64,000 nucleotides of DNA from Anthoceros angustus (Eukaryota > Plantae > Anthocerotophyta). This document shows, one piece after another, positions 17,449-63,366 of this stretch. Within the stretch, counting starts at the first letter, position 1; each line of letters starts with the position of its first letter. Location: the NCBI GenBank assembly GCA_010909165.1, contig MU008177.1, forward strand, positions 1,054,001 to 1,118,000. The letters run 5' to 3'. The position numbers and the translations under genes are program-made. The notes beneath the pieces were generated by a model. The model saw only the letters and a program-made list of their open reading frames with translations, was not told the origin of the DNA and searched no databases.

Positions 17449-17498
17449 CGTTCAGGGACCGCTGCTGGAAGATGGACTGCAGGGCCATGGGAGGATCC

Positions 17499-18920: not shown

Positions 18921-18967
18921 CAAGCACATTCACCCCAATGAGCACTGGCAACGCTTCTTCGTGTTTC

Positions 18968-23452: not shown

Positions 23453-23762
23453 AAAGATAAGTAATTAGATTGATTAATTATAATCAAACACTAAACTCAA
23501 GTGCAAAGATTAGTATCACACGGCATAACAGGATGCATAAAAATAACAAACGAATGCGATAAGACTTGCCACCTACCCGCCCACATCCTTGCCTTCAAGA
23601 GTTCTTGACAAACTTGATCAAACTTAGCCGACTCCGACCTCGATCGAGCAACATGCCCCTCTTCACAAGAGCACCACTCGGCCCGGGACCGGAGGCAACC
23701 TTCCTTTGACCTGAATTCCCACCTCTAGAGTGATGGAGGTCGTCTCCGTCGTTCCTTCACCT

Positions 23763-23985: not shown

Positions 23986-24619
23986 TTGGAACCCGGCTCA
24001 CTGCCGGCCTTGCTGCCACGACCTCCTCCTAGACTTGCTATTGCGCCACCCCCAACAACACGGCATGGAAAACATGATGATGAAGATGAGGAAAAATAAA
24101 CCATAGCAAGTGGAAAGAGCATGGCCCACATTGTATCCCAAGCGTTACCAAACTTCCACTTCAATCTTTTTATCCACGTGCACCCATATCCTAGGATTGA
24201 TCGGTCATATTTTAGCCCGGACAATATTACTTTCCTACTCGTGCATGTGCCATCGCTCCCTTCGGCCTCCTTCTACATCCTCCCGCATCCTCCTACATCC
24301 TCCCACATCCTCCTACATCCTCCCACAATCGCTCCCTCTCATGAATCCCTCCAACATCCTCCCGGGCTGACCATCTTTGAAGGCCTCCATCACAACAGTC
24401 ATCGCATCCCCTCACCACAACCTCTTGAAACTTGCTGAACCCTGAACATCTCAAAGCCCTCCCTTCCCCGAAGCAAAGTTCCTTGCAGGTAAATATTTTG
24501 GTGCTAGGTGGAATTCATTTTGACATTGCAAGGATCAACTTAACAAAGTTGATCTATTATCAATTGATAGTGAATATTACACTTTGCATTTTATGGCAGT
24601 AAGAATTGAAATCAAATAA

Positions 24620-31041: not shown

Positions 31042-31086
31042 CAAAAATGAAGTGTTGCCAGTGGTGATTGGGGTGAATATGCTTGT

Positions 31087-31230
31087 TGAGACGTGGACAT
31101 GTCCATTCCTGTCCAAACTGAGACGTGGTCATGTCCATTCCTGTCCAAACTGAGACGTGGTCATGTCCATTCCTGTCCAAACTGAGACGTGGTCATGTCC
31201 ATTCCTGTCCAAACTGAGACTTGGACATGG
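31087..31230. repeat. 32-bp minisatellite downstream of PPR copy C (4.5 copies)
   Basis: tgagacgtgg(a/t)catgtccattcctgtccaaac units at 31087, 31119, 31151, 31183 and 31215. Confidence 0.92.
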
Positions 31231-33030
31231 ATGGCTAACACTGATCCTGGCAGCCCTCATCATAATAGAAAGAAACAGAATGGAGAGGAGCGGGGTCAAC
31301 TTCACAAGCTGCGTCTGCTCGTGTGGACTTGCTTGGGATCTGCCTTGGTCTTGGAGATCAGGGGTTAGGGCCCCGATTTCAGCTCAGATCCCGGGGAATA
31401 GTGGCTGCGCTTGCTGGATTCAGCTTGTAGCGGTATGGGAGTGGATTTGCAAGTTTTTCCAACTTATCGTTTTGCGGCTGGGGAAGCAAAGCTGCTAACC
31501 TGCAAGGCTCCGGGATCCGTGGATTGATGCCGGTCTGGGCATCTCCAGTTCATTCTGTGATAGAGTGGTTCAAGGGTGCTCCTGCCTGCTAGTAGCTGTG
31601 GATGTGCATGGTCTTCAGACAGGACAACTCCAACATGCTGCAACAACTTGCAACTTGACGTGCAGAGATGAGGTCAGTTGAACACATTTCACGAGGTTCT
31701 TTAGGAGGCCATTCTGGAGTTTGGAAGTCAGTGCAGAAGAAACGCCCTCCCAAGGTACGATACGCAGTTTGTTTTTTCGTGCCAGTTTTCGTGCCTTCAT
31801 CCCTATGTGGGCATCCCTGTACACTCGATGAGCTGCTCTGAGCAAAAGAGTTGCTGGTGTTCCTCAGCGAGCAGCACACTGAGTCCGATAGATCAGAGTG
31901 CAAACTCCGTGCAATCGGAAATATGGCTGTTCCCACTTCCACGGGCAGATAGACGATGAGATGGCTTCAAGGACAAGATGACATGTACACTCTGTACGTT
32001 CATATGTAACAAGGATGTCCTCCACATTTATCCACCTTTATTAGGGTGGATAAAGGTGGAGGAGATCCACTTGCTGAGTGGCGAGAGGGAACAGGAGTAG
32101 GCAATATAGTCAGCTAGCTGCTTTTAGAGCCCTAGCGGCTTGGGCATATTTATCCGCTTGGGTTAACAACTTACAGCACCACAATTTTGCTGCATTTCCT
32201 AGTGTGTGTATCATCCGTTGTGCAGAGTCCGATCGAGCCTTGAAAGCACGCAAAGCCTCCTCTTGGAGAGATGCGATTACCGGCTTTAAAATGTCGATAA
32301 CTATTTGCAACGTCCTGCTGGCCAAAAGCCCCACCCCTGGTACTATGCAAACACCACCGAGGGAGAAGCAAAAGGAGACACCAGGGCAACTCGTTGCGGG
32401 AATCAAGCACAAGGCAATCTAGAGGAAGACGTAACGCTAATCGGGCATCATCGTGGAGGTGTCAGGGAAGCATGCGAAAGATGCGTGGGCAAAGAAAGCA
32501 AATTTTAAACAGCCTGAGGATGTAATCCAACTGGGTATGCAACCATTTCCATGATAAACGAGGTACCCCTTGGGCACCGAAGCCTGTGCCCCGGAGTGGT
32601 GGGAGTGGCAAGACGCACTTGGGCAGCCGAAGTAGTCTGGTCAAAGTCCTTACGCATATGCCTAATGTGGATTTTTACCCCTTTAATTCCCCAACAAAGC
32701 TAGGCACAGACCGAACATGGAGTGTCCTTAAGGGTGACAAAAAGTGTGGACTGCCTCAGTGGGAAGAGCAGAGAACGCTCCCCACAACAATTAGCTGACC
32801 TGGAAAGTGCCGGGGGGGATGACCAGGATCAAGAACCACAGCTGATAAAAGACCAGTGGAAGGAAAACACAGCAAAATGATGCGAAAAGTCTGAGATAGA
32901 AAGTGCACCGAAAGGACCCTGGAGATAGGGCCAAGGAGGCACCGAGGACAAAAGTCCCCGGCCTTACCGTGCATATAGAGAGTACACTACATATGGCAAA
33001 CCCCAATAGGCTAGCCAAAGACCCTGCCTT

Positions 33031-38131: not shown

Positions 38132-41100
38132 ACCGTATCGAGGTCGGATTGTTGGTGGGGATGGCGGCGATTTGAATCGGTTGCATCGCAACTATCGAGG
38201 CTACCGCGATTCGATCGACATGAGGAGGTGGTACGATTTCAAGCGACGACCCGGTTCCCACCGACCGAGGAATTGAGATACGTCGGCCCTTGGGGTACAC
38301 TTTGTACGGCCGGAAGGGCAGCATGTGGGTATTTTACTAGGCGGAGTTGTGTAGAGAGGCTTTATCAGCTGGAAGGACTGTTTCAGCAATTTGGAGCGAG
38401 GCGGCAAAGGGGCTGGATTTGCCTCACGAGATCGAGGAGGCTCGGGCTAGCCTATGAAGGTTTTGCGGTACTTTGGGGCCACGTCGTGGGATTCGAGGCA
38501 GTGCCACCATCTTGCGTGAATAACTTGCCAATCCCCACACCCGGCGAGGGTCGATCACGGGCGTGACCCAGGGCCCTTGTGCTCCTATACACCAGCGGCG
38601 GCGGAAGGCTGGCGGCTCGCCACGGCAGGCGACGGAGGATCTAACGGCCCGGCTCGAGGGAGGCACGGCGGAATAAGAGGCGGATCAACTCGCGGGGCTT
38701 GAGGGCCGAAGGGCGACCTGCGGTGATGTACTAACCTTGGTGTAAGCTGGACATGAAATCCCGGCCGCAATGAGGGCTCGTGGTGTCCGGCAAGGTGATT
38801 CCTGTGCCATGCTGCCTTGTGGTAACCAAGATTGCAAAAGCTCTTGTGTGTGTAAATTGAGTCGAATCCTGGGCGAAGCGACAGCTCAGGGCTGTGAGGC
38901 TGTTCTCGTGCCAGCTGGCCTTGTGGTGCCTCCGCCGAGGGTTTTGCTCGAGTGGCTAAAGTGTGAGGCCGGATGCTAATTCCGCCGGAGCGACAGCCTG
39001 TGGATTGCGGAGGCGGTTCCCTCGCCAGCTCGTGGTTTTGGCGGTGCCTCCACTAAGATTATCCGGTGGAGTTGTGATTAGTAGGTAGTGAAGTCGCCTG
39101 CCGCCCAAGGCCGTGAAGAATTTGTGCACCTTGAAGGGGGGGGAACTGTGACTGCGACCACCGCCGGAAGTCATGGTGCATGTAATCAGCGTGGCACGCT
39201 CCATCGGCATGCAACAGTCACCAATGGACTCGAAATTTCAGTGCCGGCAGGTGATCACCGGTGCGGCGAGGATCGACCACTTACGAACCTCGCCACCAAC
39301 GCGCCTGTCCAGCAATCGAGAGTGAATCAATAGCCGTGGGGAATCGACTAAATTATGGACACGGCACATGGGTGGTGCACATCTCAAAGTGGGTGCCGTA
39401 CACAAAGCTCGGAGGGTTAGCAGCCGAAGTCATGCGGCTCACCGCCGGATTGCGTGATCGGAGGTCGGGTAGAAGATCTATCACCGCCAATCACACGGAT
39501 TGCAATCGCAGGCGAAGGTAATCAAGTCGCTTAGCAAGTATGGGGAGCAACTCGGCCGGATGCTGCGATTGTCAGCCACTGGGCCCGCAGCGGCGAGCAG
39601 CAACGCGAGGCGAGTCAATGCTCACTGAGTCACGACCACCTAGGGAGGCTGTGCCAGGTAGCACGTCCCACGGGCATTTACCTGGACAGTGAGACGCCAC
39701 TTTTGACCTCCGGAGCCATAGGACCCGAGCATATCTCGGGAGTTATGTGGCGCCTAATCCTCAACAAAGATGTTACCATCGCGCTACATTTCTCAAAGAC
39801 ACGCACTATTGTGGTGGATGCAGTGGAGGTTATCGCCCAAGGTACAATTACACCAACCACCCTCGACGCAGACGGATGGTCAATTTGGCACCTTTGAGGG
39901 GAGACAAATGGCGAGGAAAATTTGGCTAGGTCGCCAACGCATTTACGAAAGCACCACACACAAGAGTTTCGACGCCTCGTCCAAGCATCCGGGGATCACC
40001 AACGACGAAATGCTAGATCGCCGCGAGGCTTGCCGTCCGCAAGGATCGCTAAATGGCAGTGCCGAACATTTGAGGACGCAATTGTGTCGCCCAACAAACC
40101 GATGCTCGCTTCACCGGTTAAAGGGTGGTATAAGCAGCAACCCTGGGACGGAAGGCCTGTGACAATGCGACACCAATGGAACTCTAACACTTCAGCCATT
40201 TTGGTCATACTGCCAAGGATGGGGACACCGAGCACCTAGGACTGCCACGCAACACCGGACGAGGCCGAGGTGGTCGGGACGGGTGACGACCACCGCCCAA
40301 CAAAGAAGGATTTAGGCGAGGGAGACCCCAAGAAACAATAATGTCCAGATCAAGAATTGCAAGACTCGGAAAACGAGGCTTCCAGCAGCAGAGGGGCATC
40401 CCGAGGAGTGGTGACCATAGCCCTAGGGTCCGGCGACTTTTTACCATCCGAGGTCAAGTAAACAGTAACCTTTGTCGCATTTTACTCGACTCGGGTGCTA
40501 GTTCTAATTTTATGTCTAGGACTTTTGCTAAGCAGGGAGGTTGGGACACCCACCAGTTGTGTGGGCAGGTCCGGTTGGCCAACGGCCAGTGTCAGGCTAA
40601 TGCCACAATCAGCAATTATGTTAATTTACGCATGGGGGGCCACTGCGAGCGTCTCCGTTTCACCATCACCGATCTTGCCGAGGGGCATGATATCCTGCTG
40701 GGTATGCCTTGGTTAGAGGACCACAATCCAGTTATAACGTGGCCTGATCACGAGTTAACCTTTGCAGATTGGGGGGAGGCGCCTCACTGTACGAGGCGAA
40801 CAACTCACGGGAAGGAAGAGGAGGCAGTGCCAGCAAATTTCGGCCGCAGTACTAGAGTGTGCATTGCGCAAGGGGACCGAAGATCTTCAGCAAACCGTAA
40901 TTGTTATCAAGGAGAGGCTGTGTCCAACGCGATCGGACCAGCTTGTCGCCCCTGTAGGAGATACCAAACTGGCTGCCATAATGGATGAGTTCAAGGACGT
41001 GCTGGTCGACACACTGCCGGCAGGATTGCCCCCAGCTAGGGAGGGGTCGACCATCGATCGAACTCATACCGACAGCCGACCTACGTGTACGATGTCCGCG

Positions 41101-43529
41101 CTAGAAATCGAGGAGGCCACACGCCAAGTGGAGGAGCTCTTGAGGGATATATTCGCCATCAAGTCCCCACACGAGCCCCAAAACCTTCCTTAAGAAGAAG
41201 ACGGTAAGTCTGCATGTGATTATCGGGACCCAACCTAACGAAGAAGAACACGCCCCGCTACCACGGATTGATGAGTTCTTGGAGGGACTTGCGCGCGATT
41301 CTTCTCCAAACTCGACTCCAGCCTGGCTACCATCGATCCGTGATCGCCAACGGGACGGGAGAAGATGCGTTCAACACTCGACACGGCCACTATGAGTGGC
41401 TCGTGATGTCGTTCGGAATGACTAATGCGCCAGCCACCTTCGGAATCGATGAACGGAGTATTTTGTGGGATGATCAACAGAGAATCTTGGTGTACCTCGA
41501 TGATATCCCGTGTATGGGAGAACCGGAGGAGCATGACAAGAATCTACGCCAAGCTCACGACGGCTTAGGGCAAAGCATCAGTCGTGACAGCGTACCGTGC
41601 GAACTTCCGCAGCACAGCAAGGGAGTACTTAGCATATCATCAATGCTCGAGGTGTCCAAGTCGACAAGGTAGTGCTTATACAGGCCTATACCGAGTAAAG
41701 TACAGACGATGAGTTTCCTCGGGTTGGCTTCCTACTATCGCAAGTTTATCTCGAACTTTGCGCACATAGCACCCACTCACACCGCTTGCAACAGGGAGGT
41801 TCCTTGGGCGGAGCAAAGGCGGCCTTTGAAGCAATTAAACAGCACAACCAGCCCTGAAGGTTGTGTATCCCGACACCGCCATTTGTCATTGACGGACGCC
41901 CGACCTAGCCGGAGCGCATTTGCAGGATCGGCGGGGTCTACAACCAAGAGCATACTTCTCAAGGAAACCCAAGGAGCGGAACTCAATTGACGACGAGAAG
42001 GAGACGGCACAAGTGTTGGCCATCAAGAATGCTTTTGGAAGGTACTCCTGCTTTTACAGATCGACCACGCCGCTTTGTTTATCTACAAACCCGCGCAATC
42101 GGAAGCAAGCCCTGGCTGGAGTTCCCGCAATGATTACGAGGTGCGACGTGAAGGTCGAATCGCCGATGCAATCGAGTGCTCTCAGGCTAACTCCGTGTCA
42201 ACGATTTACACATGTTCAAACAGATCGGCAGGAGCAGATCCGTAGCGCTGTCGTTGATGCCACGGCGGCCGGTTGCAAAGCTATACAGATTTGGATCCAT
42301 TGACCGCAGGAGCATGACGGGTTGCTATGGCATTCAGCCGTTTCTTTATTCCACAGCTTGCTACATATCCGCCGAGATCATTGTCAAGCCCATGATTCAC
42401 CATCACCGCCACTGGGGTATTCAACGGACGCTACTAGCTGTCCAACGACCTTTTACTAGCCCCAACCGTGGAAGTACGTGACTATGTAGAACTCATGATA
42501 CTTGTCCGAATAAGGCACCCCGACTAAGCTAGGTTACTCCAACCGCCCCTGTCCCGCTCATGCCTTGGGACCAAGTCACTATGGATTTCATTGTCGGCCT
42601 TCCCCAACACAGTGTGCCACAATGCGCCTCCTAGTCTTCACCGACAAAGTTATGCTATGCTGCAGCCTACGATACTTTCATAATGGAGCAAAATTGCCTT
42701 CCTTGAGTGGTGTATCATACAAGATGGTCTCCCACCGCCTATTGATGATCGAGACCCGCGTTCTGTGGCACCTGCGTGGTGCGGTGGTGACTAAGGACTA
42801 AGCTATGCTTTTCTCAAACTTTCATCCACAGACGGACGGCCATGTAACGCGCCAACCAAGTTCTTGAAGATATCTGAAAGCACACCGGACTCCAACAGGA
42901 GCTCTGGGATGAGCATCTTCACTTTGCGGAGTTCGTATACAACAACGCCACCTGTCAGCTTCTACAGCGCCTCCGCTTATGTTCAACAAGGGATGTCCCC
43001 GTAGCCACGGAGTTTCTAACGACACGGATTGCCCTACAGAACAAGCTAGACGCCCGCCATGAGGCATGTAACTGTGCACAAAAAGAATCGACACTGTACA
43101 CAGAGCTCCAAGTCGACTTTCGTCCTCCTATCACGCAACCTACCTCCCATCGTCGGCGTCCCCGAAACTATCACCACGCTTTCTTTGGTCCTTACCAAAT
43201 CATACGCTGTAGGCCCTGGCCGCTATGAGCTTGCTTTACCTCCCAAGTCCGTTTGCACCCCTGTTCCACACCTCTCCTCAAACCCTATCATGGTCCTCCT
43301 CCCCACGCCCACCCCTATCCCCACCGACACAGTCCCGAGCACGAGGTTGAAGTCAGATCGACATCGCCATCAAGAAGAAGCTCCAGCTTTTAGTTCTTTG
43401 GGGATACCCACTATCCGACGCCACGGGAAAACCAGATCATCATCTCAAAGCACCCCGCATCCTTCACGACTACCTTACGCCATCAACTCACTCCCCGCCT
43501 GCGTGGTCGGCTTTAAACCCCGGGTGAGT

Positions 43530-43708: not shown

Positions 43709-45203
43709 AGAAGAATGCTTCTAGCTTTATGTCGAGCTTAACTTGAAATTTATCACAGCGATCCAGACGGCCTTTCTTTATGGTCACCTTAAAGAGGAGA
43801 TCTACATGGATCAACCAGAGGATTATGAAGATAAGAAATTCCCTCACAAGGTGTGTAAACTACTCCAATATATGGACTTAAGCAAAGCCCACGCTTATGG
43901 TACGAGAGAATGGATTCTTATCTCAAGAAGTTGGGGTTCATTCCAAAGTGAAGATACTAACATCTATGTACTCGGGATAGCTCACTTGTACTTGTTGCCC
44001 TATATGTCGATGACTTAGTTATTCCAGCAATAATGTTGAATGGTCAACAAGATAAAATGATTTGAGCAAAGAATTGAGATGAAGGATCTCGCAAAGTTAA
44101 ATATATTCTTGGAATGCATGTACATAGAGATAGCATCGGAGCTATTTATCTTCATCAAGGACGATATGTATGGTATGCTAAAACGCTCAACTTGGAACGT
44201 GACGAGCGAGCCCACACCAGCCGTTGGTGTTAAGCTCATCGCTCCCCGCCTGCAAGAGGACAAGAAGGAGATGGAGATCGTGCCCTCACCGCATGGGAGT
44301 TGGAACTCTCATGTTCTTGAGTAATCAGACAAGACCAGACATCTCAAACACCGTGAATGCTGTTGCTCAGTTCTCAGAGAATCCAGGGAGGGATCACTGG
44401 GTTGCTCTCAAACGCATCATGCGATACCTCAAGGGTACTCAAAACTATGGCCTATGCTACAAACCTAGCGGAAAGAAGCGCCTCCTACTTACATGTTATG
44501 TCGATGCAGATTGGGCTTTGGACGCTGACACCCGGAAAAGTATCTCAGCATATTGCTTTCTTGCTAGCTCCACTGTTGTTAATTGGTCTTGTAGAAAACA
44601 AGCAGCCATATCACTTTCATCAATGTAATCGAGTACAAGGTTCTCACCAAGCCACCAAAGAGGCTGAATGGGAAAGGAAGCTATGTGAGGATCTGGGTAT
44701 GACGCAGAAGGGCCAACAATACTTAACTGTGATAATATGTCAGCAATTGCTTTAGTTGCTAACCCCGTGTTCCATGCACGCACGAAACACATAGAGATTC
44801 AACATCACTATATTCGTGATGCTGCAGAAAGGGGAATAGTAAAGGTACAGTATGTACCAACAGACGACAACACAGCAGATGTGCTGACCAAATCCTTGCC
44901 CAAGTTTAAACACTGCTTCCACAGAGAAGGGCTTGGATTAGTAGACTGTAGTAGCTTTATGACGCTAGACAAGTCACTCATATGGTGAGGCTTATCATCT
45001 TTTGTTCCATCACTTGAAGTTGATGCTTGTTCCCCGCCTTGGCCACAACCGTGTACTACTCCGTGAGTCTGGAGAGCCGCCACACGGAGTACGGAATGCG
45101 AGTTGAGACAAAGTAGTGGAAGATCAGGCACATTGCAAGACTACAACGAGTGGTCTCCTTTGTTTTACGGAGATCTCGGATAACTCAACGGTCCGAGAGG
45201 GAG

Positions 45204-48090: not shown

Positions 48091-49621
48091 AGAACCTGAG
48101 CCTGACCCTGAACCAACCCTACGACGTTCCATACGCCATAGGCCACCCCCAGACCAGTGGTTAGAACCCTACTAACCAACGTCGATTTCCGAACGTCTTC
48201 GGCAGTTTATGGTGCTACACAGAATATCCCTCCTGCCGAGGAACCCTATCATACAAGGAAGCCCTCCGTGGCCCAGATTGCTCCAAGTGGCAGGCACTAG
48301 TGGAGGATGAATACCAATCTCTGCTCAAGAACAAGACTTGGAAAATCGCTGACCTACCACCTGGATGCAAAGCCATCTCATGCAAATGGGTTTTTAAACT
48401 TAAACTCAACGCTAAAGGGGAGATTGCCAGGTACAAAGCCAGACTGGTGGCAAGAGGATTTACCCAGGTTGAGGGCCTGGATTACCAAGAAACATTCTCA
48501 CCAGTTGTTCGAGCACAATCCTTTCGCATATTGCTGGCTCTTGTAGCAGAATTGAACCTCGACTTACAGCAAATGGATTTGTGTACGGCCTTCCTCTATG
48601 GAGACCTGGATGAAGACCTGTATATGACACAACTTGAAGGATACGAAGACCCTGAACATCCCACCAAAGTGCTTAAACTGCTCAAGTGCATATATGGACT
48701 AAAACAAAGTGGCAGAATATGGTATATCACCATGCATATCTAGCGGATCAGCATATCCTTTGTCCAAAGCACAGCAGACTCTAACGTTTACAGACTCAGC
48801 CAAGGAAGTGACTTCGTCATATTAGCCCTATATATCGATGATGTCATCCTCACCACAAACAGTAAAACTCTGTTAGCTGATGTTAAGCAAAAGCTAATTA
48901 CCAAGTTCGAGATGAAAGACATCGGAGAACTTAAATACTGTTTGGGAGTTCAAATTCTAAGGGTACGAGAGGAAGGGCTACTGATAGTTCACCAGCATAA
49001 AATATATCAATGACATTTTGCGAAAATTCAAACTTGACGAAGCTAGACCCTCAACTACCCCCTTTACCATGGGCGTCAAACTCACCAGTCTCCAATGCCC
49101 ACAATCTGAGGAAGATATTAAGGACATGAAGGATGTCCCCTACATATGCAAATTAAATCTTCTTAGCAAATTGGACAAGGCCAGATATACGGTATTCTGT
49201 AAGTACAGTACCACAATTCCTGGAGAATCCAGGAAGAGCACATTGGGCTGCTGTCAAGCGGATTTTGCGCTATCTTAAAGGAACCCACAACTATGGACTC
49301 TTCTATCGTAAGGACTAGATAGAATCACTCCCGAGGGACGTGATGTCGATCAAGGGCGTCGGATGTTGATTCCGAGAAAGAGTCTTTCCACCTACTGCTT
49401 CCTATTAACTTTGGCTGCTGTGAACTGGTCGTGTAAGAAGCAATCTTCCATAGCCCTGTCATCCACAGAAGCAGAATATATAAGTCATTGACAGATGCTT
49501 CAAAGGAGGCTGAATGGGAAAGGACCTTCCTTCACGACCTCGACCAGACCCAGCAGACACCTACCCCTATCATGTGTGATAACATGCCAGCCCTAGCCCT
49601 TGTCGCTAATCCATGTTTTAG

Positions 49622-49642
49622 AAACCCTAAACCCTAAACCCT
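49622..49642. repeat. Interstitial telomeric repeat (AAACCCT)3
   Basis: Perfect aaaccctaaaccctaaaccct inside the Copia RNase H NP.FHARxKH motif. Confidence 0.9.
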
Positions 49643-50047
49643 GATCTAAACATATAGAAATACAACATCACTACATTAGAGATGTGGTGGAGCGCGGAGT
49701 CGTGAAGGTGGGTTATGTGCACACAGACTCTAATGTCGCAGATGTGCTAACGAAAGGATTGGCAAAACACAAACACTACCAGCATCTTTCAGGGCTAGGC
49801 CTGGACGACTACACCAAGTATTTCAGATAACTTATCTGTGGTGGGGTGGGGTGGGAACCCGAAGGTTCCCTTGGGAATTATGTTGTGCCCTCATTCTTCC
49901 TTGAAGGCACACAGGAGCTGTAGGCGCCACACACGTTCCCTCAGGCAACGCACTCCTGTTAGTGGAACAAAAGAGGGAGATGGACAGCCTTGCAGGGAGG
50001 ATGAAGCTTACCTTAAGACCTAATCTCCTGGCAACGCCATACTTCTC

Positions 50048-51457: not shown

Positions 51458-53348
51458 ATGGATTTGAGTTCTTGTATTAACTTAGAAGAGTTACCAACTA
51501 ACACACCTTTTGTGGTGCAGCTTCCTAAATTAGGGTTATTTAACCATACCGACCTAAACTGGGTTTCTTCTCAATATGACCATTCTAGGGCACCAGCAAA
51601 AACATGTGAAGGTGGCTCACATACTCTTTTCTAGAGTGGGAGACTTTATTGGGGAATGAGTGCTATAAGTTCCCATCCTACGAACTTCTACAAGAAGGAT
51701 TCTAAGGGCCGGAGTTTACCTCACCTCAAAATCGACAAAGGCATACATCATATGTTAGGTAAGAAGGTTTGAAGTATGTAAATTGTTTTATTACTTAGGA
51801 GGCATTAACATTGTGAGGTGGCTTGCGTATTGGTGTTCTTACTACCCGGAAGACTTTCGCCAAAAGGAGGTGGAGTGTCACGTGGTGCCACATACAAATG
51901 TAAGGTCCTCCGTGGAGAGAGTGTCAAGCATGGTTGCCAAGCAAATTTTAGGTGAAGAAACTTCTCCGTGGCCTAAGGTTGAGATTGGTCTTTTGAACAT
52001 AGGCATACCGACCTTTCAAATGCTATATGTCATGGGCCCGGTACGGCTTACCCGTGATGTCGAGCGCATGGCTTTCACAAGAAAAGAAGGATTGGATCGC
52101 ATTGCCTATATTGCAAAGTTCCCTGATGAAATAATGCGCTCAAGATCAAGATGCATTGTATGCTCGAATCAACAATCGATGTAGGTATATAAACTAGTAA
52201 GAGATGATTATATGCAAAGATATGATGTTCTCAATATACACACAAGTTGAAGTTGGTGAATGGAAGCTAGCCCCTGATGATGCCACATCGTTGTCCCGTG
52301 GTTGGAGCAAAATGCGCCTATAGTCTTCCACCAATCAAGCGAGAATCAACCTTCGCTTTGGGTATTCAAACTCCTTTTATGTTAAATTGCATGTTGCTTT
52401 ATGGGAATGGTAATGTGCTAGCTATGGATGCAACTTTTGGGTTGAATGTATCGCTACCACTTATTCACTGTGATGGGTTTTGACCATTACTTGAACGGTG
52501 TTCCGTAGCATGGGCTATTACAAAAGATGCTACCACCGAGTCACTTGTCGTGGCTTTATTACTAAGAAGGTTGAAAAGATCAACAAGGATTGGACACCTA
52601 GTTCATTCCTTGTTGATGATGTCGCGTAGATTTCGCTATTCGCCTGTGGAATCATAACATACCTATATTATTATGCTTGTGGCATGTGCGAAAAGCGTGG
52701 AGACGGAATTTATTGAAGAAAGTGCACTCACAAAGTAATCGAATTTCAATATGGGCAGAGCTAGGGGATATTATGTATGTCACAGGGGCAAGCACATCTT
52801 CACAGTGTGTTTCCATAGGAAGAAGTATGCTACACAATTTTTATGACAAGTGGGGAACAAGTGAAGGAGACTTTGTGAGATATATGAAGGTCCAATGGGG
52901 AGAGACTATAGATATGTGGTTGTGTAATGCTAGAATGTTGCCTCATGCAGGGCAACATACAACTTCATGGAAGGATTCCATAGATTTATAAAAGAACGCA
53001 AAGATTTAGCAAGTCAAGTTTGCTCGGCGTAGACTAGACGTTACTACACCAATTAGTGAATGTGGTTGCGACATTATTGGTACCAAGACTTCACAAAAGA
53101 AGGGGATACAGCATAACAAGAAGTGGAGGCTTTGGAGGAAACCGCTATGAAGGGTGCGAAACTATTCCTATTAGCTCGCTTATTTTACCGCATGCGAAAA
53201 TGTTGTTGCACATTGTTTGTCTTCATCGACCCCTAACTTGTGGTATGTGATTGAACATGTTTACCTCCTTGGGCTACATGCTCATGTCCAATGGGGAACA
53301 AAGGTTTCATCCGCAAGCATGTGGTGAAAGTTCAACAACTCATGCTAG
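51458..53348 (+). pseudogene. MULE-type transposase / SWIM zinc-finger remnant
   Basis: YWCSYYPEDF, FALGIQTP..L..MLLYGNGNVLAMDATFG, WTPSSFLVDD, LCLWHVRKAW..NL.KK, and SWIM TCSC...G...KHVVKV directly before the inserted retroelement. Confidence 0.8.
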
Positions 53349-53901
53349 TGTGATACTAATCTACGCACTTGGGTTTAGTGTTTGATTAGCATTAATTAAT
53401 CTAATTACTTATCTTTAAGTAAGTAATTAGTGTTAATTAATCTAAAGTGCTTATGTTAATTAAGCGTTGATTAGTGTTAATTAATCTAATGTGCTTATGT
53501 TAATTAAGCATTGATTAGTGTTAATTAAACATGGTTAGCAATAGCTAAGTGGATAAGCTCAAGTAATATTTCCTTGCATATTATAGTGTATTCTTAGGAT
53601 ACAATAGCTAAGTGGATAAGCTCAAGTAATATGCTTTGGCATATTCCTTGCATATTATAGTGTATTCTTAGGATATTTCGGCATATCGATGCCAATAGGA
53701 TATCTTAGGAATATGATGCCAGGTCTAGTATATAGACCCTTCCATTGAGGACAAGCTCGATCATAGCTTGTCCTCTAGATATGCAATGCAAGAGCGAGGA
53801 GGCCAAAGCTATGACCCGAGGCGATGTGTGAGGAATTTGCGTGTTGTTCTCGTGGGAGAGTGTGTTTGTGCCACGACGTGCTACTCCTCCCTGTTGTTAC
53901 A
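53349..53901 (+). repeat. Terminal repeat A1 (LTR-like, TGT...ACA)
   Basis: Near-identical to 61373-61924; contains internal 44-bp TTAATTAA-rich and ~65-77-bp tandem duplications. Confidence 0.9.
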
Positions 53902-53917
53902 AGCTATGATCTCGGCA

Positions 53918-54047
53918 CTAGGTGATGCTAGGCGATGCTAGGCGATGCTAGGCGTGCTAGGCGATGCTAGGCGCTAGGCGATGCTAGGCGATGCTAGGCG
54001 ATGCTAGGCGATGCTAGGTGATGCGAAGGCTGCTAGGCGCTAGGCGA
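53918..54047. repeat. 10-bp minisatellite (ctaggcgatg)n
   Basis: About 13 copies, some degenerate. Confidence 0.92.
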
Positions 54048-54096
54048 GCCACGAGGCAACGCTAGTTCTTTAAGCAAGTGCAAGGGACTAAGTGTG

Positions 54097-54416
54097 CCCA
54101 AGGCTTAGGCCAAGGAGAGAGGCAAGAAGCCCAAGTCCAAGGCCAAGGAGAGGAGGAGAAGAAGCCCAAGCCCAAGGCCAAGGAGAGGAGGCAGCCCAAG
54201 CCCAAGGCCAAGGAGAGGAGGCAAGAAGCCCAAGTCCAAGGCCAAGGAGAGAGGCGAAGCCCAAGTCCAAGGCCAAGGAGAGGAGGAGAAGAAGCCCAAG
54301 CCCAAGGCCAAGGAGAGAGGAGGCGAAGAAGCCCAAGTCCAAGGCCAAGGAGAGGAGGCGAAGAAGCCCAAGTCCAAGGCCAAGGAGAGGAGGCAAGAAG
54401 CCTACCAAGGAGAGGA
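54097..54416. repeat. Purine-rich ~30-33-bp minisatellite (aagcccaagtccaaggccaaggagaggagg...)
   Basis: About 10 copies; this accounts for the low-complexity ORFs in all frames. Confidence 0.92.
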
Positions 54417-54575
54417 ATGAGGCTCCAAAGGCCTTTAAGGCCAACCAACCAAGGGAGAAACAAGAGTATTTTACTCTTGGGCCCTGGATTCAAGGGATAA
54501 GGGGAAGCGGATAGACATGGGTATGTCATCAGTCCATGTGATTTCACTTTCTGTCCAAAAGTCCTAGTTTGTCGG

Positions 54576-54626
54576 CACCCCATCCAGGTACTGATCCACC
54601 CCACGGGTGCTTAACTCTGGAGTTCC
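54576..54626 (-). other. 5S rRNA-derived segment (internal Pol III promoter boxes), Cassandra/SINE3-like; not a 5S gene
   Basis: Minus strand ggaactccagagttaagcacccgtggggtggatcagtacctggatggggtg compared with plant 5S agaactccgcagttaagcgtgcttgggcgagagtagtactaggatgggtg (recalled). The 5S 5' and 3' ends are absent. Confidence 0.7.
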
Positions 54627-57275
54627 TACGTCTTTGCTATCCAACTCACCCACTTCTTTTGACTATGATATAGCCTGCAGAGTATTTCTATGCGATTTTA
54701 ACATGCATACATACTTAGAGGTTTCACTAATCACGATCTAAGATAGCGGGGTGTGTTAACCTTGATTAAGGGTTTGATCTAGCCACTAACCGCCTGGAGT
54801 GCTCGACACACTCGATCCGGACGGAGCTACCAACCAACAAGTCCATCGAGCGAATTCAAGTCCCGACCAAGAGGGAGAAGTGCCACCGATTTTGGTACCA
54901 CAAGGACGCGGAGGAACCCAGACACACAATCAACAATCTTTGAAGGATCCGTGAGTGGCAACACACAAGACACGTTAGTGCTGCCGGACAACTCGGAAGC
55001 GAGAGGAGGACTTGTCTCTTGGAGTCGTCAAGATGGGAGGAGACAAGGATCGAATGGAGTTGTTCACAGACGAGCGGCACCTTGCCACCGGAGGACTTCA
55101 TCGAGAAGTACGGTGTGTGCGGAGATGGAATTGAAGACCGGATACACGAAGCGATACGGCTTCATCCAAATGCAAGTACTTGGGGATGAAGCATTGGCGT
55201 GCTATCGCGAGCACAAGGCGAGGCTGTTGAGCGCACATGGAGGACCAGTGAGTAGCAGTTCAAGCTCAAGGAACCAGACGGGGCGGTGGCACCGAGTGGG
55301 CACGATCCCATCAAGAGATGTTTGACATCTTCCTACCGGAGTTCCTGCAAGCACGGATGAGAAGATCTCGTGACACACACTTCAAGATGAAGTCAGCGAG
55401 ACTGCAAGATGGCTTATCAAGAATCGACCAGTTGGTACGTGACACCAAGATCATGAGTGACCGACCGCAGAGAAGTACTTGGGCATTGCCATATGCACGC
55501 ATGAAGGTGCAACAAGCGGTGCATGCACGGGGGCAACACTACACCCTCAAGGAAGTGTACGAGATGGTCGACAAGATAGGGCCCGCGACACTTTCTCTCG
55601 CTGTCAAGTGATTACTCCAAAGACAAGTAGGAGTGGTGGACGACATGACCGACGCGGAGGTCGAGTGGAGGAGCTCGGCGAGACAAGCCAGCCCACCCCA
55701 AGTGACGAGCCCCGTGAGGTGCCGAGGACGGACCATTCCCTCATGAGTGCGAGCATGCATTCGGAGGAGTCAAGGGTGAGGAGCCATGCCCTAGGTGTGG
55801 AGGTACGGCACAATGAAGCGGCATGTTGGAGAAGCATCCGAATTGCGGCCTACGGGTTATCGAGCAGCAACCCCGCCAATGCATCCGCCAACCTCATCCA
55901 CAAAATCGAAGAGCAAAGGCGCCGTGGAGGAGGCACCCAAGTCCCGTGGACAAAAGAAACGGGAAGCATCAAAGAAGACGATGGATGCACGTGGCACGCC
56001 TTGCAAAGCTGGAGAAGTTGGTGCGGAAGGCGAAGATCAAGGAGAGCAGTTCATCATCGAGGACGAAGAAGATGAGCACAAGCTTGGATACATGTCGTGA
56101 CCGATCCAAGGGCAGGAAGAAACCGCAGCTACGAGAGAAGATAGCTCGAGGAAGAAGAGGATGTCTTGACACCGAGCGGAAGACACGGAAGGAAGCTTCG
56201 GATCCTCTTCCCGAACCTATGCCAAGATGCCAAAGTCGTTTGAGCCATTGCCAGGAGCAACTGTGGAGCAACATCAAAGTCCAGTGGGCGATGTGGAGAA
56301 ACCCATGCGATTGCGACGGAGACGATGGCACAAAAGCTCGGAGATGCCATGTTTCACCTACAAGACATGGGGTTGAGCGTGAAGGAAGTCAGGGGTTTGA
56401 CTCGGCGGATGTTGACAACCCTTGAAGACGAAGCAAGTGTCGACAATGTGCCACAACAGGTGGCAATGATGTCATTGCTGACCTCGGAGCCAAGCATCTC
56501 TGTGGAGAAGCGGAATGCTGCACGAGTGGGAGTGGCTTTGGTCAACAATCAAGAGAGGCACATTGAAATCAATGGATTCGCACCAAGGAGGGTGTTGATT
56601 GACACCGGAGCACAGCCGGTGATCGTTGGAAGAAGAGTGAAGGAAGCGTTGGGTCTCCACCAAGAAAGGTTGAAGGAAACCAAGTGGAAGATCCACACAC
56701 CGGGACCACGGAGCATGTGTTGGGGTGACAAGGTACAAGCTGAAGGTTTCATTCAAAACAAACAGACTTCACCTTTGTCGAGGTACACCGCTTGGTCACC
56801 GATGCGACACTTTTGATGTCTTGGGAGCGGACGCTTTGTACAAACCTCGAGTCATGGTGGATTTGTGGACGGAGACATACTATCGACCAGCCGGAGAAGC
56901 TGGAGCAAAACCGATGAACGGATTGCCCGCATCCCTCTACACTGCATGGCAAGGATCATGAGAACCTCATTGCCAACAGCGTCTACCCGTGTTTGGCGCC
57001 AGAGTGAAGGACACGCCATACGTGCTTGAACCTCTTGGCGTGTGTCTAACAACCGCAATCGACCCGATGGAGGATTTCGAGGAGGAGGAAAACAAGCTAG
57101 GGTTGCAACCACCCGGAGGAGGTTCTTCAAGTCACTGGACGGAGCTGGTGATGCAGCAATGAGCAAAAGTGTGGAGGATGGTGCAAGAGGACCGGTCCTA
57201 TGAGAGAACTAAGTTCTTGCCTAGGGTTGAGCCTGTTTGTGACCTAAACACCTGTGTCATCACATGGCGACCTCG

Positions 57276-58160
57276 GAAGACGGCATAGTGCTCGTGGAAC
57301 TCTTTGGAGGCATCGACGGCTTGAAGCTAAAGTGTGGCATCAAAGTGCGAAGATACGTGCATTGTGACCCGGATCCAAAAGCAAGGATTGTGTCACGAAG
57401 CGTAAGAGACTTGATGGGGAGTACTAACCTCCGACGTGGAGTGTGAAGGGTTACCTATACCGCCGATGGATGTTCGCATGATAGGGTTGTCCCATTTGAG
57501 TTGTCTTGGGCAACCGTGGACCTTGTCATCGCAGTTGGGAGTGTCAAGGACTATCCTCTGCAGTAAGGGTCAAGGTCTCAAGGATCCATAACAGCATTGT
57601 TCTATGACTGATGAGGATCTTGCGCTTGATCCGTAAAGGGCAAGAAAGGCCTTGTGGATACATGTTGGAGAATGTGCCAAGATGCATGAGCGTGAAGAAG
57701 CAAGTTCGGAGGACTTTGCCACGATCCGAGGAGTGTTGGGTCGAGCTTCTATTGGATGCACTCAATTTGGTTCGAGGGCTCATAGGTTGAGGTCCATGTG
57801 GACTAACCTTGCTCCTTGGAACATTTGAAGTGTGCGAGGTCGCTCACCAAGCGACCTAATCATGTTGTCAAGGATGTGCTAGCATCGGAAGGCATGCCCA
57901 ACAAGTCATCAAGACTGCCGCCGCACTTCCTGTGAACACGCCTGACACCCCATGGCGGCTTGGCCAACCTTTGTGTCTAAGTCCAAGTCTTACGCCTTCA
58001 GGAACCATGGCCCCGGTGGTGGATGACATGGCGAGGTTTTGGGAGAGCCACCACGAGAGGAGTTGGCCATGGATTTGATGCCGGAGCAAGACACCGGAGT
58101 GACCGAGAAGGAACGGTGTCGATTGCTTGGGCAAGCATTTGACGTGAACATGATGACTGG
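57276..58160 (+). pseudogene. DNMT3-like C5 cytosine DNA methyltransferase domain within retrotransposon pol (frameshifted)
   Basis: Motifs in canonical order: I IVLVELFGGI, II KVRRYVHCD, III DVR.I, IV VDLVIA.WECQGLS (catalytic Cys), VI YMLENVP, VIII LDA.QFGSRAHRLRSMWTNL, IX/X RELAM...ERCRLLGQAFDVN. Confidence 0.88.
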
Positions 58161-61061
58161 TTGTTTAGCGCCGAGTCGCTTACCAACTTCAAACCAAGAA
58201 GGCGGGGTTGAAGCGGGTTCGGTGGGTGAAGGATATTCCGACTCGCATCTCAACAGGAGAAGGCGAGTTTGGAGGGCAAGGAGAGCGAGCACGTAGAGGA
58301 AGCGTGCAAGCCATCGAGCCACGCCCACATGAGTGGTTAACAGGCCGAGTTGAAGAGCAATCAACGGCCGCCTAAAGGAGTTGTTGGAGGCATCGCGACA
58401 TGTGTTTGCTTTCACGCTATGGAGATGGGGAAGTACACCAAAGGGAAGTTCCACATAGAATCGACCACGGATGAACCAAAGTGTTCAGAGAGGGTGAAGG
58501 CTGAGTGGGATTTGGTTGAGAATCGATGCCAAGAGCTTCTCAAGCTAGGGCTGATTCGACGATCTAACTCGCAGTACGCAGCTGCGACAGTGCTTCCGAA
58601 AAAGAAGGATGAGAATGGATTGTGGACGGAGAGGAGAATGTGTGGTGACTATCGGCCGTTGAACGAGCGAATCCCACATGACCACTATCCCATGCCGACG
58701 GCCGAAGAGATCTTCGACACCATTGGGTCTGCCAAGTTCTTCTCAACATTGGACTTGAGGCTAGGGTTTCACCAAGTAGAGATCGCCGAAGAAGACAAGA
58801 AGAAAACGGCGTTCTGGGGCAGAGATTGCTTGTACGAGTGGAACTACATGCCATTTGGGTTGAAGACATCGCCAACGCAGTTCCAAAGATACATGGACAA
58901 TGAGCTCAAGGACTTGCCTTTCGCCAAGTGCTACATTGATGATGTCATCATCTTCAGCAATACCTTTGAGGAGCATCTACAACATCTTCGAGCAGTCTTT
59001 GCTAGACTGGCTGCCTGGGTTGAAGGCCCATCCAGGGAAGTGTCGATTTGGAGAGGACAAGGTGTTGTACTTGGGTCATTGGATCACGCCTGACGGGATC
59101 TCGCCGCATGCCACCAAGGTGGAGGCAATCGCGCGCATTCCCAGGCCAAACGACATCTCGAAGTTGAGGGCATTCTTGGGGTTGGCAGGTTACTACAGGA
59201 AGTTCATTCCGCGGATGAGCAGGATTGCGCGGCCATTGAATGACTTGTTGAAGAAGTTGGTGACTTGGCGTTGGACTCAAGAGGAGGAGTCAGCTTTCAT
59301 GGAGTTGAAGGGTAGACTCATGAGCTCGCCAATTCTTGGTCATCCAAACTTGAAGCGCTCGATTTTACATCGATTGGAGCAAGTACGATAGGCGCCTTGG
59401 CGCAGATCAATGACAAGGAAGAGGAACATGTCATTGCCTATGCCACGGAGCAACAACCAAAGCGGAGTCCAACTACTCTGCCTATGAAGGAGAATGTCTT
59501 GCAGCAGTGTGGGCAGTGGACACTTTCGTCCGTACTTGTTTGGACATCAATTTCGAGATCACCACCATCAACCCTTGCATTGGTTGATGACGAACGCCAA
59601 GCTTAAGGTGGCGAGGTGGGCTCTCATTCTCCGTGAGTATGACTTTGTCATCGAACACCGAGCGTAGAGTTCACTCTAATGCCGATGGGTTGTCAAGGAA
59701 TCCTCTACCGTAACGAAGACACTAGGGCCGTGCAAGATTCGATGACGAGCAATGGGGAGAGTAGTCCAGATACCATGTTGGCTATGCCGCATGAGGATGT
59801 CAAGATGCCCTCCACTCATCGCTTTGTATGCAGAGTCCGTCAGGGACATCTGGGCGGATGCAATAGCGGTGACCTTCCTAAGGTCGGGAATTGCCACAAG
59901 GGCTTTCATCTCGAGCAGGCCAAGCTACGAGAAGGTGGCTCGATTATTGGAAGGAGGACATAATGTATGTCCGTGATTCTGGGAGATAGAATTGTACCCA
60001 AGCCGGAGGACGGGTGAGACTCATCACCTGTGCATGAAGGCTTAGGGCATTTTGGTGCTAAGCGCACCTACAAGATGCTCAGCCCACACACTTTGGGCAA
60101 GGATGTATGGAGATGTGGAAAGGTCGCACGTCGAGTGTGCGATCGAGTGAAGGCAAGGTTCATACCAATGATGTTGTGCTTCACTCCGATCCGAGGACTC
60201 TTCTACGTGGAGTGTGGATCTCATGCCGACATGCCGAGACGCAGATCGGAAACAAGCATGTCATGCTAATGGTGGAGCATTTCAGCAAGTGGTGCGAGGT
60301 TGCCATCTTACCCAAGCGTGACTCTCACCAAGAAGGCGTTCTTGGCTTCCGTTCTTAGTCGATATGGAGCATGCGAGGTTCTCACCGACCAGGGCAAAGA
60401 ATTCGTGGGGAATTTCAAGACTTGCTTGACAGAGCTTGATTGATCATCGACGCCGAGAGATCATCCTCAAGCCGATGGACTTGCCGAACGCTTGGTGCAC
60501 CTTCAAGCGGCCTTGCGCAAATATTGTCTCACAAATGACCAAGACATGGGATGAAGGGATGCCATACCTAGTGCTAGGGTGTGGTGAGCAATCAAGCACC
60601 TTGAGCAATTTTTCACCATACTACTTGTTGTATGGGCGACAACCATTTTGCCAAACGTGAGGCAAGCAAGGCTACAAGCACTGGATTGGCGCAATGCGGA
60701 TGATTGCCTACGAGACCGGAAAGGCGGGCGAGCTTTTCAAACGGATCATGCCCATGGCAATGGAGAACCTTGCCATAGCGCAACATGGGATCAATGCGCT
60801 ATGCTTACACACGAGGAGGGACATGGAAACCCAAGGTGCGCAAGTTCAAGTTGGAGATTATGTCTACGCGGAAGCCGTGCAACACCTTGGAGGTATCCAC
60901 CACAGTCATCTTGCGGTCGTGCGAGTAGGCAAAGATGGAGTGCTTGAGCTCAAGGATCCGATGGTCAAGATGGAAGGATCACCTCAAGAATCGCGCACCA
61001 TGCCACTTACCCAATTTGGACCCTCAACTACGGCCCATAATGTGGCCCACCCAAAGACTTG

Positions 61062-61196
61062 GAGTGTCGTTTGTGGACGATCGATGATGATGATGTAATG
61101 CTTCTTTGTGATCGGTGCAATAGGGGATACCACATGTTTTGTGTTCAACCACCTCTTGACGACATTCCCGAGGAAGATTGGTTTTGTGCACAATGC
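61062..61196 (+). other. PHD finger (C4HC3) at the integrase C-terminus
   Basis: C.VCGR.DDDDVMLLCDRCNRGYHMFCVQPPLDDIPEEDWFCAQC, with small indels in the first codons. Confidence 0.9.
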
Positions 61197-61267
61197 ACTA
61201 CATGAGGTGCGACGATGTAGTCCTACTAATGATAATGTTTTGACTTGGAGTCTCACATTATCGGGGG

Positions 61268-61372
61268 ATTGGTTTGCACCTATATACCGTATTAGATTTG
61301 TTTGCTTGGTTGTTGGTCGAGGAAGTGCTTATATGAATTCAAGTGCTTACCTCGTATGCATACCGCCATGCC
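61268..61372 (+). repeat. Terminal repeat B1
   Basis: attggtttgcacctatatac...gtgcttatatgaattca, repeated at 61924-61996. It follows the purine tract ggggga. Confidence 0.85.
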
Positions 61373-61924
61373 GTGATACTAATCTGCACTTGGGTTTAGT
61401 GTTTGATTAGCATTAATTAATCTAATTACTTATCTTTAAGTAAGTAATTAGTGTTAATTAATCTAAAGTGCTTATGTTAATTAAGCATTGATTAGTGTTA
61501 ATTAATCTAATGTGCTTATGTTAATTAAGCATTGATTAGTGTTAATTAAACATGGTTAGCAATAGCTAAGTGGATAAGCTCAAGTAATATGCTTTGGCAT
61601 ATTCCTTGCATATTATAGTGTATTCTTAGGATACAATAGCTAAGTGGATAAGCTCAAGTAATATGCTTTGGCATATTCCTTGCATATTATAGTGTATTCT
61701 TAGGATATTTCCGCATACCGATGCCAATAGGATATCTTAGAATAATGCCGGTCTAGTATATAGACCCTTCCATTGAGGACAGCTCGATCATAGCTTGTCC
61801 TCTAGATATGCAATGCAAGAGCGTTGTGAGGAGGCCAAAGCTATGACTCCGGTGAAATGTGAGGAATTTGCACCTCGGGGAGAGTGTGTTTTGTGCCACG
61901 ACGCGAGCTACTCCTCCCGTGTTA
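61373..61924 (+). repeat. Terminal repeat A2
   Basis: Direct repeat of 53350-53899. Confidence 0.9.
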
Positions 61925-62020
61925 TTGGTTTGCACCTATATACTGCGTATTAGATTTGTTTGCTTGGTTGTTGGTCGAAGTGCTTATATGAATTCATGTT
62001 TACTCCGATACAACCTCGCA
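61924..62020 (+). repeat. Terminal repeat B2
   Basis: Direct repeat of B1, near-exact to 61996 and weaker beyond. Confidence 0.82.
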
Positions 62021-63366
62021 TACACAAGGAAGCAGTCTTAGCCAGGCAAACCAAAATGGAAGGACGGCGAAAGTAGTGATACCAACAACTTGGCTATGGC
62101 TTTTGGGATGCGAATCAAGAAGCTCCACACATTGTGTTGCCTAGTAACCCCTTGGTGGCACCAATATGTAAGACAAAATTGAGATGGCAAAAGAAAACGT
62201 TGATTTTATTAAACCAAGACATGTGTCAAGTATGATACCGCATTTGAGCGTTGATTAGCTTTTGGGATAGCCTACATTATGGAGCAATGGTGAGATGAGT
62301 GGCATGCATGAAGAACCTCAACTAAACAAGTGTTGGAAACTTTGCCGAGAATGAGCAACAGATCAAACGATATGTTGGTTTGGAGGAAGTTGTGTGTAAG
62401 AAGAAAAGACGTGAAGTGGAACATAGGCGCTTGATAAAGGGTGGATTGATGAGCTGAAATAGGCTTTTGGTTTTGAAGTGACCAATCTACTTTTGTAGGT
62501 GCCGAGAGGAGATAGCAGAGACTCGCTTTGATCGGGTCAATTACGCCGCCTTAGAAGGTCGAATCCACTCTTCCGGTTTTAGAAGGTGAGAATTGACTCA
62601 ATGCCAAGAGATGCACTATGTACAAAGAACTCCTCCAAACCCGTGAGGAAACTTAAGCACTAAAGCGCTGTAAGAGGTGCCCATTCCCTACCACCACCGA
62701 TCATGTCGATCGAACATGCTTCCGGCCAGCCTTCGCCACCTTCTGGACCGAACCCGAGTTGCACACGTTTGTGAAGGATCGCATGTGCTTCATGCCATAC
62801 TCACCAACGAGCCACACTCACTCGTAAGCCCGCACCTACATTCATGCATCCGACATCCAGATTAACCTCAAATCTTTGTGAAAGAGAAACAAACATTACG
62901 ACCAGCTCCAGCTCGCCCACTTACCACGGCCTTGAGGCAATCGCCGTCCGACAAGAGGCAAGGCGGCTTCCGTAATGCTGCCAACATTTCGTGCCCCCAC
63001 TCATACCCAAAGACCAACACCGGAGTCGATGTGCACGTCGAGACATTATTCTTGCCATGTCTGGCGGCTTTCACTTTGTTCAAATTCCGTGAATGCTTGT
63101 ACCGGAAAATCACCGCAAAGGGTACAAGGAAGAGAAGGATCGATGTCGACATGCAAAACCAGCACTCCCCTTCCAAAGTTCAGCAAATCCACATGAAGAG
63201 TAATGATGCTTGTACCTTGTGCCAATAGTGCAGATCAAGATGACGTTGATTCACGCCAACTGACTCGTGATTGTTCCCAAAATGCCCATGTCCAACAAGG
63301 TAGGCCTCACGCTCGCCGTGAGGGTCATAGCCTAAGAAGAGAGATAATTTGTCCGCGTATTGCATC

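Follow-up and report, generated by a model that had tools for sequence, protein, structure and literature searches.

A Gypsy-type element of the hornwort Anthoceros angustus with A-internal-B-A-B repeats and integrase ends inside the repeat

Introduction

Split direct repeats ordered A1-internal-B1-A2-B2 are described for the retroelements PAT, Ngaro, and VIPER, which use a tyrosine recombinase (PMC4157794). We analyzed an element with this repeat order in a 64,000-nucleotide stretch of the Anthoceros angustus genome (assembly GCA_010909165.1, contig MU008177.1, positions 1,054,001 to 1,118,000 of the forward strand). We call this whole stretch the window and number all positions from its first letter. 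In contrast to PAT, Ngaro, and VIPER, the family of the window's element has a protease, a DDE integrase, TG...CA ends, and 4-bp target site duplications (TSDs). Its integrase ends lie head to head inside the repeat. From comparison of copies, we believe that the palindrome on the left is probably cut and the natural ends of the complementary DNA (cDNA) rejoined, which would leave A-internal-B-A-B within a 4-bp TSD.

The same repeat order has been linked to Gypsy domains once before. The legend to Fig. 4c of de Mendoza et al. (2018; PMC5890265) gives KnitGypsy-Dnmt3 of Klebsormidium nitens the repeat structure of a DIRS element together with Gypsy domains. The original prediction for the window, made from its letters by a model, had held A...BAB ends to be foreign to Gypsy elements, and this legend puts that view out of date. 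KnitGypsy-Dnmt3 and the window's family share the DIRS-like repeat order and the combination of a Gypsy Pol with a cytosine methyltransferase, which we looked for and found. The accessible text of that study gives no ends, TSD, primer sites, palindrome, or PHD finger for the element and names K. nitens only. Its Discussion offers no mechanism for the layout, and three supplementary files contain no match for KnitGypsy, TSD, or integrase. The clade of the window's element, by contrast, has relatives beyond K. nitens, in proteins of Closterium, Marchantia, and Calypogeia.

Three further systems resemble parts of this element. In Tf1/sushi elements and plant Tcn1, the 5' end of the transcript supplies a primer complementary to a site beside the 5' repeat, a likeness to what we predict here; these elements have complete long terminal repeats (LTRs), with the 5' LTR ending in CA at the primer site (PMC6317226; 10.1101/2022.12.06.519325). 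In the window's family, the repeat end at the primer site is without an integrase end, and a PHD finger takes the place of the chromodomain at the end of Pol. The integrases of HIV-1 and foamy virus cut palindromic LTR-LTR junctions, and the integrase of our family would similarly cut a palindrome of abutted ends and release processed ends. The viral palindrome is a join of reverse-transcript ends, and cutting it restores a normal provirus (PMC1905944, PMC1180852, PMC4372172), whereas in the window's family the palindrome is a fixed internal sequence, the transcript join stays in the insert, and cutting would be the normal route. Troyka is also an LTR group distinguished by unusual ends, but these are CG...CG with a 3-bp TSD on ordinary paired LTRs, and it is described from animals only (Kojima 2025; PMC12440569). 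We had considered Troyka as the present family on the supposition of DIRS-like repeats, which it does not have, and CG...CG ends with a 3-bp TSD do not occur here. Outside Repbase Reports, subscription journals, and bioRxiv supplements, our literature search found no paper describing these ends or this mechanism. Thus, the layout is in print once, as a figure legend, and the mechanism is undescribed in the searchable literature.

Results

The layout is a family trait

For relatives of the window's element, we kept the best 80 of 556 loci from a metagenome scan. A scan of viral contigs gave 68 loci, mostly genomes of about 7 kb at 31-44% identity, and only L081-L083 were used from it, as outgroups. 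A and B were mapped on L001-L083, where 36 loci matched; these are 34 distinct loci, as L007 equals L008 and L009 equals L011. Fourteen of the 34 end in B-A-B, and A1 is also visible in six (L003, L011, L013, L017, L030, and L047). The others end in B alone (12 loci), end in B-A at a contig edge (2), show a left end only (5), or are rearranged (1, L025). B precedes the left end in 0 of 18 left ends. The 12 A-internal-B loci without A2-B2 include L004, L031, and L040, all three with matching 4-bp TSDs. Such B-only copies may be double cuts, later B1-B2 recombinants, or assembly collapse.

The metagenome loci group into three families whose repeat sequences are unrelated; the window's element belongs to a fourth. 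The outgroup Gypsy loci L077 and L055 have other repeat patterns. The original prediction had weighed a family trait against a unique circle opened by chance and had proposed aligning the termini of relatives. With the layout common to 14 other loci, the first alternative stands and the second is refuted.

A protein search with the reverse transcriptase (RT) returned 411 matches, and proteins from Klebsormidium, Closterium, Marchantia, and Calypogeia are among the 120 listed. A 90-sequence FastTree phylogeny of RTs grouped the window with all of the mapped metagenome loci and the proteins from algae and liverworts in one clade that is separate from other Gypsy loci. The clade includes three K. 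nitens RTs and has moderate support (0.77-0.99 at the midpoint root), with labels that may shift on re-rooting. Within it the window RT is a separate branch, and the K. nitens proteins in the tree are not labelled KnitGypsy-Dnmt3.

As an aside from the outgroups, L077, a Gypsy locus without a methyltransferase, contains a 66-bp repeat toward the 3' end, with its copies 479 letters apart (6743-7347). This could be a further split arrangement or the result of overlap in the assembly.

Integrase ends flank the insert and meet inside it

The relatives start with TGTCATG and end with CACGACA, or with C-to-T decay forms of these. Over 10 copies, 32 of 40 TSD letters match, compared to a permutation mean of 12.1, and 0 of 100,000 permutations reach this value. 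This count left out L023 and L013, in which the last B is cut short, and the one-ended loci. All four letters match in L003, L004, L011, L040, and the window (CAAC/CAAC), and three of four in L030, L031, and L047. The TG...CA ends and 4-bp TSD of the relatives fit the pattern of Ty3/Gypsy elements, in which the TSD is 4-6 bp; in the window the TSD is present and both ends are decayed.

The same two ends also stand head to head inside the element (CGACA-GC-TGTCATG). The spacer between them is 2 nt in 17 of 17 junctions and reads GC in 5, AC in 6, GT in 2, AT in 3, and AA in 1 (L019 and L028 were placed by hand), so 16 of 17 have GC or its deamination forms. The ancestral internal junction was likely the near-palindrome CACGACA-GC-TGTCATG, judging from these aligned copies.

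Public contigs from three studies (runs X1, X2, X4, and X6; contigs only) contain the same edges for the window's family, and X1 may derive from the window's own organism. The A start reads TGTCATGCCGT after varied flanks (4 contigs in X1, agreement 0.65; 19 contigs in X2), and the B end reads GCGACA followed by varied flanks (9 contigs in X2, agreement 0.62). The B-A junction reads GCGACAGCTGTCAC (5 contigs in X4 and 6 in X6). No contig in the four runs covers the join of B2 to the flank in this very copy (61998-62058, depth 0). From the window alone, we had considered ends at CA-TG with a common CAT and no TSD, in the style of a tyrosine recombinase; the ends in contigs and relatives and the 4-bp TSD overturned this.

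Complete LTRs have inner edges abutting the primer site and the polypurine tract and outer edges formed by the integrase ends. This element lacks such LTRs, and its integrase ends lie inside the repeat. It is Gypsy by its proteins and TSD, is not a canonical LTR element by structure, and is not a member of the DIRS group.

Predicted primer sites abut the repeats and the A-B join varies

The 13 letters that follow A1 are complementary to a segment within A1 located about 25 letters past a TATA-like box. Among window 20-mers, 2 of 2650 reach a complement of this length. In two other families with a left end, self-priming complements are present with unrelated letters, 17 nt long in L003 and 15 and 13 nt long in L035 and L023. 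Based on complementarity, the element likely primes itself in the manner of Tf1. With the primer site abutting A1 and the G-run abutting B1, B-GC-A is the repeat that the two primers delimit. The original prediction is borne out in so far as it took the true LTR to be B plus A, the unit from polypurine tract to primer site, and read the copy as circularly permuted from BA-internal-BA.

At the A-B join, the last letter ahead of the primer site is followed by the first letter past the G-run, as seen in loose ends of 8 contigs in X1 and 3 in X4, and one X1 contig (61786-61969) spans the A2-B2 join of the window. Loose ends before the B start in X6 gave no A-like consensus (3 contigs, agreement 0.55). 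Among 10 copies of one family, the join has 0 extra letters in one copy, +1 in four, +2 in one, +3 in two, +3 and a G in one, and +4 or -1 in one. The extra letters all match the start of the primer site. Variation of this kind is as expected of reverse-transcript ends joined anew, which is its likely cause.

The rearranged locus L025 (7408-14934) is an ordinary copy with an inner inversion, and one of its breaks falls exactly at the A2-B2 join. There, the A side keeps 3 primer-site letters and B is short of 15 letters, while about 650 letters are lost at the other break. This single case suggests that the A-B join was once an open break.

Pol is of Gypsy type, with a D(34)E integrase in relatives

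The Pol order of protease, RT, RNase H, and integrase is that of Ty3/Gypsy elements in both the window and its relatives. An rve integrase was found in 6 of 6 long relatives scanned. The methyltransferase remnants of the window gave no direct Pfam match in their pieces (57279..58170) and were identified through a relative (Table 1). Every reading frame of the element is broken, and this copy is a dead element. The original prediction had proposed a search for a tyrosine recombinase domain. Pfam detected none in 61 plus-strand open reading frame (ORF) pieces, nor in a set of 134 ORF pieces drawn from the window, L003, and L011, although frameshifts lower the sensitivity of both searches.

The spacing from the second D to the E of the integrase core is 34 in all 42 pattern-matching relatives among 120 proteins scanned (e.g., P0054, P0002, and P0036). 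It is 35 in both matching outgroup loci, L063 and L082, among 15 loci scanned. D(35)E is the usual integrase form. The window's own core is frameshifted, and the spacing was read in relatives, where D(34)E is a simple clade marker.

Structure of the window's copy

Features of the copy are collected in Table 1. A1 (53350-53898) and A2 (61373-61926) are 91.7% identical over 569 alignment columns, and B1 (61268-61344) and B2 (61924-61999) are 92.4% identical over 79. Between A1 and A2 there are 9 substitutions over 531 aligned letters and 15 gap events. As these differences are mostly indels, they would fit uncorrected long-read error or slippage.

All four repeats of the original prediction are real by alignment, although their edges shift slightly. 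A starts about 9 letters further left than first placed (A1 at 53340 and A2 at 61364), since TGTCATGCCGT precedes the A body in public contigs, and B2 ends at 62010 instead of reaching 62020. The G tract was correctly located directly before B1. The A2-B2 join had been thought to be short of a terminal CA, but the CA after A1 belongs to the predicted primer-binding site, and thus the join lacks nothing. A transfer RNA primer-binding site is indeed absent, with the predicted Tf1-like self-priming site in its place. A TSD had been reported as missing, and we found CAAC on both sides. The TSD of this copy is weaker than those of the relatives, as it needs the absent TG and the decayed B2 end.

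A second small fragment of the family lies on the minus strand (Table 1). It shares an ATGCAT change at the B end with the main copy and adjoins degenerate TTTAGGG repeats at 23760-23990.

Table 1. Features of the element and its flanks in window coordinates
Feature	Position	Strand	Basis or remark
Likely Mutator-like transposase remnant ending in SWIM-like finger, left flank, interrupted by element	52620..53335	+	SWIM PF04434 E 0.038, under curated cut-off; label putative
Left TSD copy CAAC, 4 bp	53336..53339	+	assumes A1 start at 53340; 4-bp TSDs in the family
A1, left repeat (U3 part, TATA, R/U5)	53340..53898	+	family end TGTCATG; here first TG absent, further changes
TATA-like box TATATAGA	53729..53736	+	sequence; matching position relative to primer in two other families; putative function
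Predicted self-primer at predicted transcript 5' end	53759..53771	+	13-nt complement of site after A1
Predicted self-priming primer-binding site ACAAGCTATGATC, adjoining A1	53899..53911	+	complementary to 53759-53771
5' untranslated region with two short tandem arrays (units about 10 nt and 30-37 nt)	53925..54410	+	
Likely gag region, frameshifted pieces	54770..56240	+	position only; no Pfam family below E 0.04
Aspartic protease	56562..56678	+	PF13650 E 1.9e-5
C5 cytosine methyltransferase remnants, frameshifted	57279..58170	+	tblastn to relative P0001 (PF00145-bearing), E 2e-6 and 2e-9
RT and RNase H, frameshifted	58422..59664	+	PF00078 E 1e-23, PF17917/PF17919; tblastn
DDE integrase (zinc finger, core, C-terminal part), frameshifted	59982..61074	+	tblastn to P0054 E 9e-27; P0054 bears rve PF00665
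PHD finger at pol end	61083..61196	+	PF00628 E 1.4e-12
G-run GGGGG, predicted polypurine tract adjoining B1	61263..61267	+	sequence; G-runs longer in X4 and X6 contigs and in relatives
B1	61268..61361	+	last six letters decayed compared to family end GCGACA
Internal head-to-head junction of two integrase ends, 2-nt spacer 61362-61363	61355..61370	+	decayed here; loose ends in X4 and X6 read GCGACAGCTGTCAC
A2	61364..61923	+	
B2, joined to A2 end	61924..62010	+	ends CGATA (family CGACA)
Right TSD copy CAAC, 4 bp	62011..62014	+	
Second small family fragment, decayed B end and A start	23453..23539	-	blastn 86% over 87 columns

Surrounding window

The element appears to interrupt a Mutator-like remnant, which likely spans 51500-53339 and 62015-62500 and is split just after the SWIM-like finger. 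A homologue search for the left-flank ORF gave no match, and both the Mutator label and the empty site are putative. A second, unrelated Gypsy-type remnant with protease and RT lies at 40287-41807. Several Copia-type RT/RNase H fragments occupy 1-12400, 44200-44900, and 48165-49900, with a 4-5-kb tandem triplication within 1-12400.

At least three PPR-E-DYW genes lie in tandem and inverted order at 13900-21700 (minus strand) and 28900-31041 (plus strand). The PPR ORF at 18971-21667 is unbroken and encodes 899 amino acids; the other PPR genes are in pieces. Two of the genes end in a KP-type DYW domain with a GRP terminus and are candidate U-to-C editing factors. DYW:KP is described as restricted to hornworts, lycophytes, and ferns, with GRP as a hornwort variant (PMC9478123). 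These genes thus point to a hornwort as the probable host. Five copies of a 32-nt tandem repeat lie at 31055-31246, after a DYW gene.

Discussion

Proposed route

We propose as the likely route that RNA would start in A1 about 25-30 letters past the TATA box, with the site adjoining A1 as the target of its self-priming, as in Tf1. Plus-strand synthesis would begin behind the G-run that precedes B1, and with B-GC-A as the repeat, the outer cDNA ends would be without TG...CA. Reverse transcription would give linear B-A-internal-B-A DNA. Integrase would then nick after CA on both strands of CGACA-GC-TGTCATG, producing two CA-3' ends with 2-nt 5' overhangs. This is the shape of processed retroviral ends, and such nicking would explain why the spacer is lost at the insert edges. 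Strand transfer would create the 4-bp TSD, and the A end and B start would be joined imprecisely, with 0-4 primer-site letters kept. In copies that retain A2, only the left, primer-side palindrome would have been used. A-internal-B copies would be dead ends, made by cutting both palindromes or by later B1-B2 recombination.

When the join would form is a separate question. We lean toward a late join, made by an end-to-end jump of the RT or by repair around insertion, since this gives the one-sidedness more naturally. A join in a free, symmetric closed circle seems the less probable timing, and a plain circle of that kind is hard to square with a cut on one side only.

Several observations weigh against the proposed route or are neutral to it. 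A plain closed 2-LTR circle has two equal palindromes and predicts the mirror layout A-B-A-internal-B equally often; it was seen in 0 of 18 left ends, compared to 9 copies in which A1 and A2 are seen (p 0.004). In the family of L003, a precise A-B join is seen in 3 of 3 copies. A within-copy test of whether each cycle copies B2 from B1 gave p 0.12-0.15 over 9 copies, with no fixed difference between B1 and B2 (L030 was left out, as an insertion had disturbed the coordinates of its B1). A 19-bp repeat unit distinguishes A1 from A2 within 4 of 5 copies; strict copying does not predict such a difference, though the array is unstable. Of 19 left ends, 4 have a self-priming complement of at least 13 nt, another 4 have one of 10-12 nt, and the remaining 11, which are old copies, have one of 9 nt or less. 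The TSD is poor in L017 (2/4) and L037 (1/4). In the window's copy, the internal palindrome keeps the family length with decayed letters, and both outer ends are decayed; indeed, all copies seen are old or error-laden.

Alternative explanations

An unlikely alternative is a templated route like that of PAT and Ngaro, whose repeat order, with that of VIPER, is the same (PMC4157794). RNA would run from A1 into B2, the B1-A2 junction would template both ends, the A-B join would be inherited, and the substrate of integrase would be either ordinary linear ends or a single rebuilt junction. Such a route would account for the missing mirror layout and for the outcome of the B1/B2 test, and an inherited join is in keeping with the precise joins of the L003 family (3 of 3). 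It does not sit well with a primer site and G-run placed exactly at the A end and B start, on both sides of the join. Nor does it fit a join that varies by primer-site letters while the B-A spacer is constant in length, or the break of L025 at the join.

We regard as improbable that two linear cDNAs were fused at their ends, with a cut at each left palindrome and B2 contributed by the second molecule. The variable A-B join fits this account, as does the absence of any clear B1/B2 signal within copies. It requires, like the proposed route, an unexplained bias to the left side. Against it, private variants common to B1 and B2 occur within some copies (14 shared non-majority letters in L005), and tandem copies occur in only 1 of 34 loci (L035), where they look like a nested insertion.

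A hidden or helper tyrosine recombinase that inserts a circle at the B-A junction, in the style of the DIRS group, is very doubtful. The repeat order and a gag region without Pfam assignment leave room for it, but it is largely refuted by 4-bp TSDs of varied sequence, with the 2-nt spacer lost at both ends. In addition, no recombinase family was found in 195 ORF pieces, and the DDE integrase is conserved. A one-off or assembly artefact (a chance-broken 2-LTR circle, a truncated tandem neighbor, or B as host DNA) might be read into the indel-rich window and the uncovered B2-flank join but is refuted as an account of the layout by its repetition in 14 other loci, the TSD on both sides, and the same A start, B end, and B-A and A-B junctions in contigs of three studies.

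Significance

Retrovirology has long asked if end-joined 2-LTR DNA serves as a precursor of integration or is a dead end, and the end-joined route is usually seen as a side path. If the proposed route is true, this family would be a natural case in which every working insert retains the joined form. We hold a wider proposal more tentatively, as nearly evenly balanced: an old LTR clade of algae and seedless plants would have moved its integrase ends off the primer sites, so that each cycle requires cutting an internal palindrome and joining ends, making the 2-LTR-junction form obligatory. Its own methyltransferase could mark one palindrome, at CG and CHG sites, and so decide which side is cut, and the enzyme adapted to this route could be the D(34)E integrase. 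The surprise is limited, as the layout was already printed in one legend line and the copy in the window is dead. Nevertheless, the route would uncouple the start and stop sites of reverse transcription from the cut sites of integrase, which have been thought tied. The liverwort members, known from Marchantia and Calypogeia proteins, make the question of the joined form testable. Annotation tools that demand paired TG...CA LTRs and a TSD would likely miss or mis-trim such copies, and an abundant lineage may thus be under-annotated in bryophyte and algal genomes.

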